Origin: Planctomycetota bacterium
GTDB taxonomy: Bacteria; Planctomycetota; UBA1135; UBA2386
Reading direction: 5' to 3'
Length of the DNA: 64,000 bases
Assembly: GCA_965223545.1 (NCBI GenBank)
Contig: OZ245006.1
Location: 1,696,001-1,760,000 of the forward strand
Positions 293 through 36,741 of the stretch are shown piece after piece. The notes beneath the pieces are model-generated. The model did not search any database. It saw nothing but the letters and a program-made list of their open reading frames with translations, and was not told where the DNA came from. The translations under genes were made by a program, and so were the position numbers. Position 1 is the first letter of the stretch, and each line of letters opens with the position of its first letter.

Positions 293-3003
293 TCAGTAAC
301 GGGTCACCGCGGTGCGCAACGGGTTGGTGAAGCGAGCGGCCGACGGAGTCGCCGCCGGCGCGACCAACGCCTGCCAGAAGAAATCGGCGCCGACCAGAGC
401 AGCCGTGTTGGGCACGGTGAACGACCACACCACTGTGCCCGTCGTCGCCACCGGCATTGAGCAACTCAGCGTCGCCGGTCCGAGCGACAGCCAACCGAGC
501 GATCCGATGCGCGCCGCCGGCGAGAGCGCGGTCGTGCTGGCGCAGAGCGCGGCCAGGATGCTCCCTCCGGCGGCACCCGGGTCGCCCGTGACCTCGATCT
601 GCCACGGCCGACCGAGCCCCATGAGATACGGCGCGCGCAACGCCCGCGCCCGGTTGGCGAACACACGCAGTCCGCCGCCGACGTACTCGAGTGCATCGGC
701 ATCGCCGTCTCGATCGACGTCGGCGAGAACGAGTCGCTTGGTGACCGTTGCGGGCTGTCCGAAGAACACTCGCTGGTAGCTGGCGGGAAACAAGGGCGAC
801 GACAACGAAAACACGCCGTTGCCATCGTTCAACAGGACCTGCTCGACGCCCATGTTGTCGACCACGATCACATCGAGGTCGCCGTCGGAATCCAGGTCGT
901 CGGCTTCGATCTGCTGCTGGTAGGCCGGCCACAAGGGCATCCGCGCCGCCGTCGCGTCGAAGAACATGCCATCGCCCGGGTTCTCCAAGAACATCGCACC
1001 GGGCGTCGCGTTGAGCCTCCGGCGCCTCAAATCTTCGAGCTTCGACAACATTTTCGAGGCGACGCCGCTGCCATGGCAACGGCGCCGCGGCGCCGGAGGC
1101 TCGGAGAGACAGTGCCTCTGGGCTCAGCGCGGCGGCGGATGTGTTGGACCTTCCAAGCCGCTCCGGCAAGAGCGGCATCCGAGTTGGTTGCGGCGGTGGC
1201 CGCGCTGAGCCTCGCGGCGGTCATGATGTCGAGGTCGCCGTCGCCATCGAAGTCCGCGATCTCCAGGTCGGTGCCGTGGAACGGGGCGTTCTGCATGATC
1301 ATCGTGAAGACGCCGGCCCCGTCGTTGCGAAACACCTCCATGCGCGAGCCCCGGGCGTGGACGGTATCCAGGTCGCCATCGCCGTCGAAGTCGAGCACTC
1401 CGAACGCGTCGATCTCGGAGGACGAGTTCGGGTAGGTCGAGCTGCAGGTGAAGCCACCGGCGCCGTCGTTGACGAGGAGATCGAGCGCGTAGCGGCCCGG
1501 ATACAGACCCGGATTCGTCTGCCGGCACATCAACACGTCCACCGCTGCGTTGCCGGCGAGATCTCCCGCCGCCAGCGTGATCGCCATGCCGCGCGGGTAT
1601 CCCGCCCGCTGGGTGAAACCGGCGCGGCCGTCGTTCAGGAACACACGCAGCTCGCTGTAGTGGCCATCGAGGAGATCCCCGTCGCCGTCGCCATCGACGT
1701 CGGCGATCAGGATCGCACCGGACTGCCCCGGACTGGCAATCGGCGGCAGGTGTCGGAAGCTGCCGAAACCGCTGTTCAAGAACAGCTCGGGCTCACCGCC
1801 GGCGAACGAGATGCTGTCGTTGGCGACGACGACGTCGTCGAGGCCGTCGCCATCGAGATCGCCGACCGCCCAGTCGACGAACGCCATCGCCGGCCGAGGA
1901 AACGGACCCGCAGAACCGTCGCGCCACTGCAGCCCGCCCTCGTTGAACAAGATCCTCCACGGCGCGCCGAACTCGACGAAGTCGAGATCGCCATCTGCGT
2001 CGGCGTCGAACGCCTGCGGCGCGGCGGAGTCGATCCAGGGCGGCATCGACGCCGGGGCCCGGGTGAACTGCGCCGCACCGTCGTTGAGCCACACCTCCGG
2101 CCCACCGGCGTCGAGCACGAGATCGACATCGCCATCGCCATCACAATCCGCCGCCAGGCTGCGCGCGACGCCGGCGCTGCCGACCGCCCCGGCGAACGAC
2201 CACCGAAAGCCGGCACTGTGAAGCAATAGCGAGTTCCCGGTCCTGCCGGTTGCCAGCCAGTCCAGATCGCCGTCGCTGTCGAAGTCGGCGTATGCGTCCG
2301 TCGGCGCCACCGACAGCGAGGAGGCGAGGGAGAACACACCCCCACCCGTGTTCTCCAACCAGACCGAGTTGACGTAGGCCCCGCTGGTGGAGCAAAGGAC
2401 ATCGGGGTCGCCATCGCCATCGGCGTCCACCGCGAGAGTGATCCCATTGACCGACGTCGCGGCAGTGGACCCGAGCGAGAACAGACCGGTGCCATCGTTG
2501 AGCAGGGTCTGGAGAGTGCCGGCAGGAGCTACACAGAGCAGGTCGGTGTCACCATCGCCGTCGACGTCTGCCGGAACCGGAGCGGAGCACAGCGTCAGGC
2601 CTGGGGCGAGGCTCGCGGCGGTGACGTCCGTGAAGTTGCCGGACCCGTCGTTGGCAAAGAGACTGCTCGACACGATCAGGTCGAGGTTTCCGTCCCCGTT
2701 GAGGTCGGCCAACCGCGGAGTCGTCCGGAACTGCTGCTGTGGGCCGATCGTCCCGTCGAGGATGAAGCGCCCGTGGCCGAGATTGCGGACGCGGTGCGCG
2801 GTGTCCAGAAACATCGCGATCAGGTCGCGATCGCCATCGCCGTCGATGTCGCCGTGAGCGAAGCCACCGAAGGTGCCGCCCGAAGGCAGGTGGGCATACA
2901 TCCGCTCGACAAAGCCGGGCTGGCAGGGCACCGCGGCAGCGAGCGACCACGCAGCGAGGAAAGCCACTGCAACAGCTTGGCAACGGTGGGGGCAACCGTG
3001 CAT
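293..3003 (-). pseudogene. Secreted FG-GAP/VCBS repeat protein with shared C-terminal domain, frameshifted by a 194-bp insertion
   Basis: Many DxDGDGDxD repeats across ORFs 1027..3153 and 293..1051; signal peptide after ATG 3003; deleting 1020-1213 joins the frames (DIMTAARL|NATPGAMFLEN) into an 838-aa protein. Confidence 0.8.
1012..1213. mobile_element. 194-bp structured insertion (MITE/REPIN-like) bounded by TGAGCCTC direct repeats
   Basis: Direct repeat TGAGCCTC at 1012-1019 and 1206-1213; perfect inverted repeats 1013-1026/1089-1102 (14 bp) and 1121-1133/1199-1211 (13 bp). Confidence 0.7.
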
Positions 3004-32881: not shown

Positions 32882-33787
32882 ATGATGGCGCGCGTGGACG
32901 CAACCGGCTCGCCGCAGGCCGCGCTCGAGGAGTTCCTCGACTTCATCGCCGCCGAGCTCCAGCTGTCGCCGCACACGGTCGCCGCATACCGCCGCGACCT
33001 CGACCCATTGCTGGCGGACGCGCGCCGGCTGCCGGGCCGCCGCGCACTGGCGACCCACATCGGCGCGCTGCGCAAACGGCGCGCGCCCGCATCGGTGGTG
33101 CGCGCGATGGCCGCGATCCGCGGCTTCTACCGGTTCTTGCACGTCGAGGGTCGCATCGACGACGACCCCGCCGACGGGCTCCTCGGCGCCCGGCTCGAGC
33201 GCAGTCTGCCGCGGGCGCTCGGCCGCCGGACGGTCGAACGGCTGCTCGAGGCATTCGACGGCGACGACGGCGATCTCGCGCTGCGCAACCGCTGCCTGCT
33301 TTGGCTGATGTACGCCACCGGCGCCCGCGTCTCCGAGGTGATCGGACTGCGCACGGCGGACTGCGACTTCGAGCGCGCGCTCGCCCTGGTGCGCGGCAAG
33401 GGCCGCAAGGAGCGCCTGGTGCCGCTGTCTCCCCCCGCGACGGCCCTGCTCCGGGACTACCTGGACCGAGTCCGCCCACGCCTGGCGGCGAGGGCCCGGA
33501 CCGCGACCGGCGACGCCGTCTTCCTCTCGCGCACCGGCCGCCCCCTCGAACGCACCCGCGTCTACCAAGTCGTGCGCACCGCCGCCGACCGCTGCGGCGT
33601 CACCGTCGCCTGCTCCCCCCACACCCTGCGCCACTCGTTCGCCACCCATTTGGTCGCCGGCGGCGCCGACCTCCGCGTCGTGCAGGAGCTCCTCGGCCAC
33701 GCCACCCTGCAGACCACCCAGATCTACACCCACGTCGACCCCCAACGCCTCCGCCAAACCCACCGCAACCACCACCCGCGCGGGTAG
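32882..33787 (+). CDS. xerD: Tyrosine recombinase XerD/XerC
   Basis: LMYATGARVSE, GKGRKERLVP, HTLRHSFATH and LLGH...TTQIYTHV; XerD versus XerC not firmly resolved. Confidence 0.85.
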   Translation: MMARVDATGSPQAALEEFLDFIAAELQLSPHTVAAYRRDLDPLLADARRLPGRRALATHIGALRKRRAPASVVRAMAAIRGFYRFLHVEGRIDDDPADGLLGARLERSLPRALGRRTVERLLEAFDGDDGDLALRNRCLLWLMYATGARVSEVIGLRTADCDFERALALVRGKGRKERLVPLSPPATALLRDYLDRVRPRLAARARTATGDAVFLSRTGRPLERTRVYQVVRTAADRCGVTVACSPHTLRHSFATHLVAGGADLRVVQELLGHATLQTTQIYTHVDPQRLRQTHRNHHPRG

Positions 33788-34917
33788 TACGGAGTCTGAC
33801 TCGATTTTCTCGCTTCGCGCCGTCACCACCGCCCCGCCGCGGTGCACCCAATCCCGACAGGAGGACGATGGCACGACGCGCACGATCGGACTACCCCGGG
33901 GCATGGCATCACGTGATGAACCGCGCCATCGCGCGGCGCACCGCGTTCGCGGAACGCGCGGAAGCGCGCGCGTTCCTGGCGCTGTGCGCGCGCCAAGTGC
34001 GCGAGGGCAGGCTGGCGATCCACGCGTTCTGCGTGATGGCGACCCACTTCCACCTGCTCGTGCAGAGCCCGCGTGGCGAACTGTCGGAGGCAATGCGGCG
34101 AATCGAGAACTTCTACGTGCGCTGGTTCAATCGCCGGCGCCGCCGCGACGGCTCGCTGTTTCGCGGGCGCTTCGCGTCGAAGCTGGTCGAGTGCGATCGG
34201 TACCGGCACGTCCTGGTGCGCTACATCGACCACAACCCGGTCATCGCCAAGGTCGCGCGCAGTGCCGCAGAGCACCGGTTCGGCTCGGCGCACGCGTGGG
34301 TGCGCGGGCGCACACCACCGTGGCTGCGCACCGACTGGATCGGTGCGCAGCTCGCTCCCGACCTGAAGCGCGGAATCCCGGTCGCGCAAGCGTACGGCTG
34401 GGCGTTCGGCGAGCCGACGGAGTCCCAACGCGACTGGTTCGAGTCACACGGAAAACGCAGCTGCGGTCGATCGCTCGGCGCACTCGCCGACGGCTCGCGC
34501 GAGCGCGTGCGCGCCTGGATGGTGCGCAAGGCGGCGTTGGCCGACGGCACCGCGCCGGAAGCGCCGGTCGTCGGCGCCGCGTCGGTGCACGTCGTGCTGA
34601 CGGCGATGGCCAGTGGACTCGGCGCGATGCCGGTTGGGCGGCCAGCGGCACGCGTGCGGGCCGACGCGCTCATCGCCGCATTCTTGTTCCGTGACCTGTG
34701 TGGGATGTCGTGGCGCGAGGTCGCGCACCACGGTGGCAGCTCGATCGGCGCAGCGCACCGGCGCTACCAGATGCACCGGTCCGCCCTCCGGGAGAACGCG
34801 CGCTACGCCGCGGTCGCCGCGCGCGCCGCGCGGTGCGCGGCGCGCGACTTCGCGCGTTCGGCCGCGCCGCGCGGGCGCGCGCCGCGAAGCGAGAAAATCG
34901 AGCCGGACTCCGTACTA
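33785..34917. mobile_element. RAYT cassette bounded by 35-bp inverted repeats
   Basis: TAGTACGGAGTCTGACTCGATTTTCTCGCTTCGCG (33785-33819) versus the reverse complement of 34883-34917; 2 mismatches. Confidence 0.85.
33868..34917 (+). CDS. REP-associated tyrosine transposase (RAYT/TnpA-REP, Y1 HUH) with C-terminal HTH; no stop at the cassette end (frame open to 37095)
   Basis: AGGAGG RBS; HVMNR, HUH motif MATHFHLL, LFRGRF, catalytic Tyr RYIDHNPV; HTH-like LCGMSWREVA. Confidence 0.85.
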
Positions 34918-36741
34918 TCGGAGGGCTTGGTAGACGCGGTGGGCGACGGTGGCGGGAAGGCCCGGGACGGCGCGGAGCTGGGCCAGGGTGGCGGCGCGGA
35001 CCGCGGCGAGGGAGCCGAAGTGGCGCAGGAGGGCGCGGCGGCGGCCCGGGCCGATGCCGTCGATCGCATCGAGGGCGCTCGTCAGTCGGCCGCGCACTCG
35101 GCGGTGGTACTCGATCGCGAAGCGGTGGGCTTCGTCGCGAATGCGGGTGACGAGGAGAGTCTCGGCAGCGCCGTCGCGCAGGGTGATGCCGTCACGGCTG
35201 GCGGCGGGAAACAGGCGCTCGGCCGTGGCGCGGCGGGCGTCGCCGCGGCCGCGCAGCCGGCTCTTGGCGATGCCGACCGGCGCCAGCTCGTCGCCGATGC
35301 CGAGCTCGGCCAGCGCGCGCTGCGCGGCGGTCACTTGGCCGCGGCCGCCGTCGATCAGCAGCAGGTCCGGCAGCTCGTCGCGCTCGTCGGTCAGGCAACG
35401 CGCGACGCTGCGCCGCACCGCCTCGTCCATCGCGGCGAAGTCGTCGCCGGCGTTGTCGGCGCCGATGCGAAAGCGGCGATAGCCGCTCTTCTCCGGCGCG
35501 CCGTCGACGAAGCAAACGCGCGACGCGACCGTGCTGGTGCCCTGCATGGTGGAGACGTCGAGGCAGTGGACCCGCCGCGGCGGCTCGGGAAGCGACAGGC
35601 ACGCACCCAGCGCTTCGGTCTGCGCCCGGTGGCGAGCGGCGGCATCGGTCTGCGCCGCGTCGGTGAGGCGCGCGTTCTCCTGCGCCATCTCAAGATAGCG
35701 CCGCTTCTGGCCGCGCTGCGGCTGCCACAACGTGACCTTGGCGCCGCGCTTGCCCGACAGCCACTCCTCGAGCAGCGCGCCTTCGACGACATCGCCGGGC
35801 ACGGCGACCTCGCGCGGCACGTACTGATCGCCCTCGTAGAAGCGACCGACCAACTCGGCCAACAGCAGGCCATCGGGCAACTGCGAGCGAAACGAGAACC
35901 GCCGGCTGCTCTCCAGCAAGCCGTCCCGGAACGACAGGAACACGGCGCAGACGTCGTCGCCGGTGCGGTGCAAGCCGAGCGCGTCGAGATCGACCGAACC
36001 GCCGCTCACCACCGACTGCTTCTCGGCGGCGCGGCACAGCGCCTCGATCTGCACCTTGAGCGCCTGCGCGCGCTCGAACTCGAGCGCTGCGGCGGCGGTG
36101 TCCATCTGCGCGCGCAGACCGCGCAGCAGCGGCGCGACCTGCCCCTCGAGCACCTCCACTGCCTGATCCAGCAGGCGGTCGTACTCCGCGCGCTCGATCA
36201 ACCCGACGCACGGCGCCGGACAGCGACCGATCTGGTGCTTGAGGCAAGGGCGGCTGCGGTTGCGAAACACAGCGTCAGTGCAGTCGCGCAGTGGGATCAC
36301 CTTGTGCAGCAGCCGCAGGGTCTGGCGCACCGACTTGGCCGAGGCGTACGGCCCGAAGTAGAGCGCGCCATCGCGCCGCCGGCGCCGCACCCACCGGAAC
36401 CACGGCCACTCCTCGCCGCGGTCGAGCCGGAGCATCAAGAACGCCTTGTCGTCCTTCAGCCGCACGTTGAACGTCGGCTTGCGCTTCTTGATGATCGTGT
36501 TCTCGAGCAGCAGAGCCTCCTGCTCGGTATTGGTCGCGACGAACTCGACGTCGACGGCGCGGTCGACCAAGAACGGGATGCCGATGCGGCCGTCGCCGCC
36601 GGGGCGCAGGTAGGAGCGGACCCGCGTCCGCAGCGCCGCCGCCTTGCCGACGTAGAGCGCGTCGCCGCGCGCATCGGTGAAGATGTAGACCCCCGGCCCG
36701 TCGGGGAAGCGCGCCACCTTGTCGGCGATGCCCGGCCTCAC
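34915..36741 (-). CDS. uvrC: Excinuclease ABC subunit C
   Basis: GIY-YIG PGVYIF...YVGKA, LLLIDGGRGQ, IRDEAHRFA and HhH GIGPGRR. Confidence 0.97.
   Translation of the reverse strand: MRPGIADKVARFPDGPGVYIFTDARGDALYVGKAAALRTRVRSYLRPGGDGRIGIPFLVDRAVDVEFVATNTEQEALLLENTIIKKRKPTFNVRLKDDKAFLMLRLDRGEEWPWFRWVRRRRRDGALYFGPYASAKSVRQTLRLLHKVIPLRDCTDAVFRNRSRPCLKHQIGRCPAPCVGLIERAEYDRLLDQAVEVLEGQVAPLLRGLRAQMDTAAAALEFERAQALKVQIEALCRAAEKQSVVSGGSVDLDALGLHRTGDDVCAVFLSFRDGLLESSRRFSFRSQLPDGLLLAELVGRFYEGDQYVPREVAVPGDVVEGALLEEWLSGKRGAKVTLWQPQRGQKRRYLEMAQENARLTDAAQTDAAARHRAQTEALGACLSLPEPPRRVHCLDVSTMQGTSTVASRVCFVDGAPEKSGYRRFRIGADNAGDDFAAMDEAVRRSVARCLTDERDELPDLLLIDGGRGQVTAAQRALAELGIGDELAPVGIAKSRLRGRGDARRATAERLFPAASRDGITLRDGAAETLLVTRIRDEAHRFAIEYHRRVRGRLTSALDAIDGIGPGRRRALLRHFGSLAAVRAATLAQLRAVPGLPATVAHRVYQALR

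Follow-up and report, generated by a model that had tools for sequence, protein, structure and literature searches.

Classical MITEs carry terminal inverted repeats and are mobilised in trans. REPINs and BIMEs, the repeats of RAYT/TnpA-REP enzymes, are described in PMC3116915, PMC8266576 and PMC3733652 as non-coding hairpins at gene ends that reach hundreds of copies, occur as tandem clusters (PMC3116915), often supply stop codons with their ends (PMC3733652) and serve as IS110 targets. According to PMC8266576, HUH enzymes act on single-stranded hairpins and use pairing between DNA strands to choose their cut sites; the site cut by one RAYT is CA, which is TG on the opposite strand. PMC12288879 presents ssr9/MITEPpu9 of ISPpu9 (IS110 family) as a small gene-less module with unlike ends and a dinucleotide core, the modules being joined through one core. 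IS200/IS605 derivatives, according to PMC6006769, have hairpins close to their ends, lack terminal inverted repeats, cause no net duplication and use the lagging-strand template; the paper also reports class 3 TnpA-Y1, whose repeats have a CnGA foot, in Planctomycetes.

Here we describe a unit that was found as a 194-bp insert in the window, by which we mean the whole 64,000-nucleotide stretch of a Planctomycetota genome that was analysed (the source genome is G000; other G-numbers denote further genomes of the same family, of which 91, G000 included, were examined). As in the REPIN and BIME accounts, the unit is multi-copy, extragenic and clustered, its ends coincide with stop codons, and it serves as an IS110 target. 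Unlike the REPs of those accounts (20-40 nt), its arms measure 60-100 nt and are unlike one another, a short hairpin with a GTAG/CGTC tag is missing (GGAG is confined to the linker of subtype A and absent from subtypes B and C and from G018, G274, G282 and G303), and no cognate RAYT flanked by the unit was found. With ssr9/MITEPpu9 it shares small gene-less modules with unlike ends, joined through one core, and the dinucleotide TG at both ends; it differs in that we found no transposase-bearing partner with the same end boxes and in that it is targeted not to a specific REP but to any TG|AG. Like the IS200/IS605 derivatives of PMC6006769 it lacks terminal inverted repeats and net duplication and has hairpins near its ends, and its right end, CTGA, recalls the CnGA foot as described; unlike them, it shows no lagging-strand bias, and its target is not fixed on one side but spans the cut, with bases selected on both sides of TG and the third base often on both. 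An ori end shared with a Y2 element, as in IS91/ISCR, was not seen. Classical MITEs resemble it in size, copy number and presumed trans mobilisation, but the unit has neither their terminal inverted repeats nor a fixed-length target duplication.

In its behaviour the unit resembles REPINs/BIMEs and IS110 hitch-hikers, yet it departs from each in a defining respect. Rfam gave no match at the gathering score (best E 0.06), and no description of the repeat was found there or in the mostly open-access literature searched. The unit represents a family-wide class of small mobile DNA whose defining features lie outside REPINs, IS110 hitch-hikers and MITEs with terminal inverted repeats, and its hundreds of natural insertions make target rules readable. 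For the in vivo spread of REP-like repeats, the precise ends, retargeted variants and mixed arrays described below offer direct tests.

The insert and its family in the source genome

The features of the locus are as follows (window coordinates).

293..3003, minus strand: FG-GAP-type repeat gene split by the insert into two frames, 1027-3003 and 293-1051; with the insert removed, it would encode about 838 aa from the ATG at 3003.
1014..1207, plus strand: element proper, subtype A, 194 bp when the cut is put after TG (a TGAG core would make it 1016-1209); 53 near-full copies at 80% identity or more, with conservation stopping at TGAG on both sides.
1012..1015, plus strand: left core TGAG, found at 93/94 outer left ends of G000, with left-end variants TA and GG in other genomes; its TG probably comes from the target.
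1206..1209, plus strand: right core TGAG, found at 90/90 outer right ends of G000 when anchored on the profile (HMM), which itself contains TGAG; re-anchored on the arm alone, 132/150 matches continue into TGAG. The TG is probably the element end and the AG target.
1013..1102, plus strand: left arm, with a 14-bp stem (1013-1026/1089-1102) and nested hairpins; 4/11 modelled pairs changed on both sides.
1103..1120, plus strand: linker of 18 nt, conserved in subtype A, in G009 and at loci L038 and L039, different in subtypes B and C and in other genera.
1121..1211, plus strand: right arm, with a 13-bp stem (1121-1133/1199-1211) whose outer pairs reach the flank; a G-C to T-A swap in G009.
1186..1194, plus strand: GGTTGCGGC, the best conserved motif between genera, at whose start sister copies carry an inserted IS110.

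The octamer TGAGCCTC is present at 1012-1019 and again at 1206-1213, and taking out 194 bp yields a single open frame (...DLDIMTAARL-NATPGAMFLENPGDG..., 836 aa counted from 2997), as the earlier note had claimed. The rebuilt protein aligned across the junction, with no gap block, to 18 paralogues in G000 (the eight that were printed are 813-864 aa, with one of 512), from which we conclude that the intact gene is the older state; the 15-residue spacing of the rebuilt repeat is ordinary (17/240 repeats). The insert breaks an FG-GAP-type gene and is confirmed as a genuine insertion. The FG-GAP label is that of the earlier note; the DxDGDGDxD repeats of the gene fit it, and an NCBIfam search gave no match over the cut-off. 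Contigs from two public runs of one study, perhaps of the source sample, carry the junctions without differences (X1 over 600-1059; X2 over 600-1059 and 1156-1700), the left junction in both runs and the right one in one, which rules out the assembly artefact that the earlier note had considered. The window copy is a rare intragenic insertion that probably inactivates the gene, which is an incidental casualty of the element. A promoter-like site with only 9/12 consensus matches lies on the minus strand at 1050-1079, just before an in-frame ATG (1051) for the rear half of the broken gene.

BLAST gave 160 hits in G000, including the near-full copies counted above, and a profile built from 122 units gave 222 hits (129 full, 55 left-only, 31 right-only and 7 internal) at 159 loci, 41 of which hold more than one hit. 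The copies, more than 100 in number, have distinct flanks and sharp ends. Left and right arms each come in three types, which recombine into chimeras; subtypes are mixed within arrays, and head-to-tail arrangement is frequent, with 67 junctions sharing a single TGAG. For 6/122 units an identical copy stands at a distance of over 5 kb, and the nearest copy to that of the window matches it at 93.5% identity. The many copies, their flanks and ends, the distant identical copies, the relatives in other genera and the lack of an Rfam or literature description support the proposal of an undescribed non-autonomous element, and we hold with high confidence that the insert is one copy of a gene-less mobile element of this kind. 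Neither the public-run contigs nor an empty-site search of G000 showed a circle, an excision or a true empty allele; the search gave one paralogue, 75% identical, whose stop bears only one TGAG. In reads, the junctions of arrays look like those of circles.

Fold, core and landing sites

The two stem-loops and the linker that the earlier note had drawn are borne out by coordinates and by shuffling: the insert folds with z = -4.3 as DNA and -4.4 as RNA (0/200 shuffles as good), and the circular 194-mer folds at -53.4 kcal/mol compared with -43.5 ± 3.6 kcal/mol for shuffles (0/100 as good). The last bases of the right stem belong to the flank. In a covariation test on 16 author-chosen sequences, from which the structure was also derived, 95.8% of stem cells were paired and 14 cells had changed on both sides (0/500 shuffles), indicating that the terminal stems are kept by compensatory change; across relatives these stems covary while loops diverge. 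The unit has no terminal inverted repeats, as its ends are not inverted copies of one another and each pairs with the interior. Both stems run over the core in G000 and G009, whereas the right stem of G282, and that of one type in G303, ends three bases before TG and leaves the core unpaired.

Beyond the core, the flanks in G000 lean weakly to the element's own letters (C before it, p = 8e-6; T, C and C at +3 to +5, p = 1e-3 to 6e-5), and target information amounts to only ~4 bases. CCTC follows the right-hand TGAG at 3/90 outer ends, and we accordingly read the 8-bp repeat of the window as the core plus this weak lean. Counting both sides, direct repeats of at least 8 bp occur at 9/49 paired loci, and the commonest length is 4 (19/49); the 8-bp direct repeat is therefore real at this locus but is no rule of the family. 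The likeness of the site to the GAGC-CT target of IS110 did not hold, since the core is TGAG in G000 and TG across genomes.

At the 49 loci where both outer ends could be paired, 2 insertions are intragenic (one being the window copy), 18 lie at a stop codon and 29 elsewhere, compared with 1441, 144 and 1414 of 2999 random TGAG sites. A TGA stop is found at 55/94 left ends, in sense orientation, vs 23% of non-genic TGAG sites, a test made on crude gene calls that probably overcount intergenic DNA, and the excess may be partly due to selection against other sites. At three G009 loci, with frames read by eye, ATG starts are occupied instead. Replication strands were used evenly by the G000 left ends (49 vs 45, p = 0.76; origin placed from GC skew).

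Relatives and junction rules in other genomes

With a covariance model of the 16 sequences, G009 yielded five strong hits, and a further 7 of the 91 family genomes yielded weak ones; 16 of the weak hits were read, and most show both arms and the right-end motif. The right-end pattern occurs at least four times in 13/91 genomes, compared with at most two times for the reversed pattern. Its counts are 127 in G018, 111 in G000, 79 in G303, 46 in G301, 38 in G274, 35 in G282 and 22 in G298, followed by 8 in G278, 7 each in G277, G280 and G305, 6 in G317 and 4 in G010, and adding G009 and G310 brings the carriers to ~15/91, with G010, G277, G278 and G305 included by the motif alone. Unit length is ~140-205 bp across genomes, and arrays occur in G018 and G303. 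Scans for the exact linker found three loci in genome contigs (the same sequences as the G009 loci), two in metagenomes and none in viral contigs; 18 viral matches to the right-end pattern looked on reading like chance or coding sequence, and no plasmid match was found. At two G303 loci (L146 and L148, G303:C1:279152 and 281136) units run directly into different hairpin modules, which likewise begin with TGAG, and form BIME-like mosaics.

Across genomes only TG is common to the junctions, although the multi-genome search pattern requires the right TG, which G000 alone tests. Left ends read TA or GG at 3/32 well-parsed loci, which suggests that the left TG is supplied by the target, and the cut after TG was inferred from these other genomes. 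Elements with TG-AG ends sit at TG-AG (G000, G018), TG-GG elements mostly at TG-GG (G274, G282, G303) and TG-AT elements at TG-A (G274, G298), while G009 copies with an interior CTCAT have ATGAG as target at 4/4 loci. Because the target letters after TG match the left-end letters of the element, part of the specificity would be carried by the element itself, and if its own letters do set the target, this would be a natural case of DNA-encoded retargeting.

The junction parse covered 35 loci, with G018 loci left out. Position 4 is G at 34/35 left ends and differs at 7/35 right ends. For position 3 of TG-GG elements, counted at 29 loci that do not include the mis-parsed L152, L201 and L211, we found G at both ends in 19, one non-G letter shared by the two ends in 5, a G on the left but not on the right in 4, and another combination in 1. 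The left base was thus non-G in 6/10 loci with a non-G target base (5 with the same letter) vs 0/19 otherwise (p = 0.0004). The target follows the left end of the element, and target letters are sometimes copied into that end; this is the most informative and least explained feature of the family. Extra duplication at the left end is variable (p = 0.005), and longer duplications reach 9 bp in G009 and 14 bp at one G000 locus.

Candidate movers and mechanism

We propose as the best explanation, with slightly less than even confidence, that the unit is non-autonomous and, as a folded single strand, is mobilised in trans, an HUH (Y1) enzyme being the most likely agent. The element would leave the chromosome as a circle joined at TG, its folded single strand would be recognised by an enzyme encoded elsewhere, and it would be joined into TG|AG; each insertion would rebuild target-like junctions, so that later copies could stack into arrays. 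Unlike ends, compensatory pairing, a dinucleotide core, the lack of net duplication and the gene-end arrays together point to a folded single strand acting in trans, and the single-strand step in itself we consider likely. The choice of the mover is more tentative: an HUH tyrosine enzyme (Y1, RAYT/IS200-like) acting in trans leads the candidates, short of even probability, and is placed first by analogy, because REP/RAYT is the nearest documented behaviour. The absent strand bias, the absent cognate gene and the copied target bases argue against HUH and favour a two-strand recombinase, for example IS110 or an unrecognised one; third-base copying from the target, in particular, is not predicted by a single nick in one strand.

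A survey of G000 enzymes gave 14 Y1 hits, 38 IS110 hits, 3 Y2 remnants and 15 reverse transcriptase (RT) hits. The unit motif stood beside 1/43 enzyme loci scanned (1/30 RAYT-type hits, on one side only, and 0/13 Y2). RAYTs of G000 carry another repeat, and no Y1 gene flanked by unit ends was found in this genome. The window RAYT, named in the earlier note as a possible mover, and its paralogue have repeats of another palindrome family on their flanks, and orthologues of the RAYT do not track the element (6/15 carriers, 16/76 others), which speaks against this role. These RAYT-type genes (window 33787-34920 and G000:C1:3914571) have a longer C-terminal part and long inverted repeats of this second palindrome family, whose top 18-mer has 48 copies and whose copies also begin with TGA. 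The single Y1 gene of G018 has a unit directly before its ATG, yet its own flanking repeat is different.

A second, multi-copy Y1 family comprises twelve genes (L003-L014) that are 96-98% identical and end exactly at the stop codon, with mosaic hairpin modules upstream that are the target of a 14-copy reverse transcriptase element. Homologues occur in 37/91 genomes, with up to 33 hits each, and the family is possibly class 3 TnpA-Y1. Among copies whose end is TGA, 5/5 have G as the next base, and the left end of G274 has a lookalike in one of the upstream modules; both points were noticed post hoc. As a mover this family was rejected: the best model score was 13.9 bits, and at 16 loci read elsewhere the homologues have no flanking units. 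It was found in 8/15 carriers and 29/76 others, and not in G018, G303, G301 or G298. One or the other Y1 family is present in 12/15 carriers vs 38/76 others (p = 0.046, with kin not independent), and neither alone tracks the element (p = 0.18 and 0.39). G303 (79 motif copies, 6 contigs), G301 and G010, with completeness of 88, 85 and 69%, gave no hit with either Y1 protein, nor did a PF01797 search of G303.

Y2 genes occur in both carriers and non-carriers, and the G000 Y2 remnants end in another sequence. One lead, 21 bases of the unit left end preceding a broken Y2 gene, was dropped, as these bases are missing from a second copy and the far end is different. A frameshifted IS91/ISCR-like Y2 gene lies at G000:C1:4547878-4549579, with several remnants elsewhere. 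An IS1-like gene inside one unit proved to be a separate IS with its own inverted ends. Between neighbouring units, inspected by eye, we saw IS110s and ordinary genes and no other enzyme gene.

An IS110-type hitch-hiker like ssr9/MITEPpu9, whose circle would recombine at TG with both strands exchanged by an IS110 acting in trans and with the element or its RNA as guide, is a doubtful but serious alternative. That precedent and the TG at both unit ends speak for it. Against it, no IS110 shares the unit ends (the IS110s found in G000, G018 and G303 have other flanks and an identity of at most 41%), none was found in G009 (370 contigs), IS110 is present in the element-free G023, and the target information is low. 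The IS110 of the window (23 copies), the other mover suggested earlier, targets the second palindrome family, and the two IS110s that touch the unit insert inside it: one has 10/11 copies at one position within units of different subtypes, the other 4/4 at another. Because near-identical IS110 copies sit in unlike units, we regard them as parasites and not as the autonomous form; the IS110s of G018 and G303 are not orthologues of these.

We think it unlikely, though worth stating, that the unit is a self-guided minimal transposon, in which the folded element supplies the target letters and homes on stop codons and the mover is some enzyme other than a recognisable Y1 or a partner IS110. This reading without Y1 is based on the spread of the unit in genomes like G303, where no Y1 was found; if it is true, a change of the left end retargets the element from TG|AG to TG|GG.

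Integron integrases act on a folded attC strand. An unrecognised or host recombinase that similarly acts on a folded strand, each end folding into a double-stranded site, is distinctly unlikely here. Stems running over the core in G000 and G009 and a short overlap with a tolerated mismatch fit such an enzyme, and so does a survey of 14 multi-copy protein families, which turned up no autonomous partner; the further multi-copy elements that were checked end in inverted repeats. The unpaired core in G282 and one G303 type does not fit.

Spread through RNA, by which read-through transcripts would be processed or circularised and reverse-transcribed into TG|AG, is quite improbable. The sense orientation at gene ends, the strong RNA fold, the RT hits in G000 and the variable left-end duplication agree with it; the failure of the Rfam search, the truncations without 5' bias and the location of the multi-copy RT element in another repeat count against it. 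A dedicated phase-variation switch or ribosome-bypass element for the interrupted gene, both raised by the earlier note, is most improbable, for although clean removal restores the frame and the promoter-like site with its ATG could express the rear half, frame restoration follows from insertion without net duplication, the window copy is an ordinary family member, and 47/49 paired loci lie outside genes. Moreover, two of three minus-strand frames run into a stop within the insert, the third, open one matches neither frame of the gene, and the 15 joints listed, of 51 in the public-run contigs, include no skip joint 1011-1206.

The IS110s inside the unit form a layered parasitism. The first (G000:C1:4224373-4226330 and 10 other copies) has a 515-aa frame, and its upstream non-coding end holds two short matches to the target site, as bridge-RNA guides would, in cut-outs that included flanks and coding sequence. 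Two units have five extra bases, footprint-like, at the position used by this IS110. The other (G000:C1:614437-615910 and 3 other copies) sits at the foot of the left arm in all four cases, and one of its copies is interrupted by an IS66-like element.
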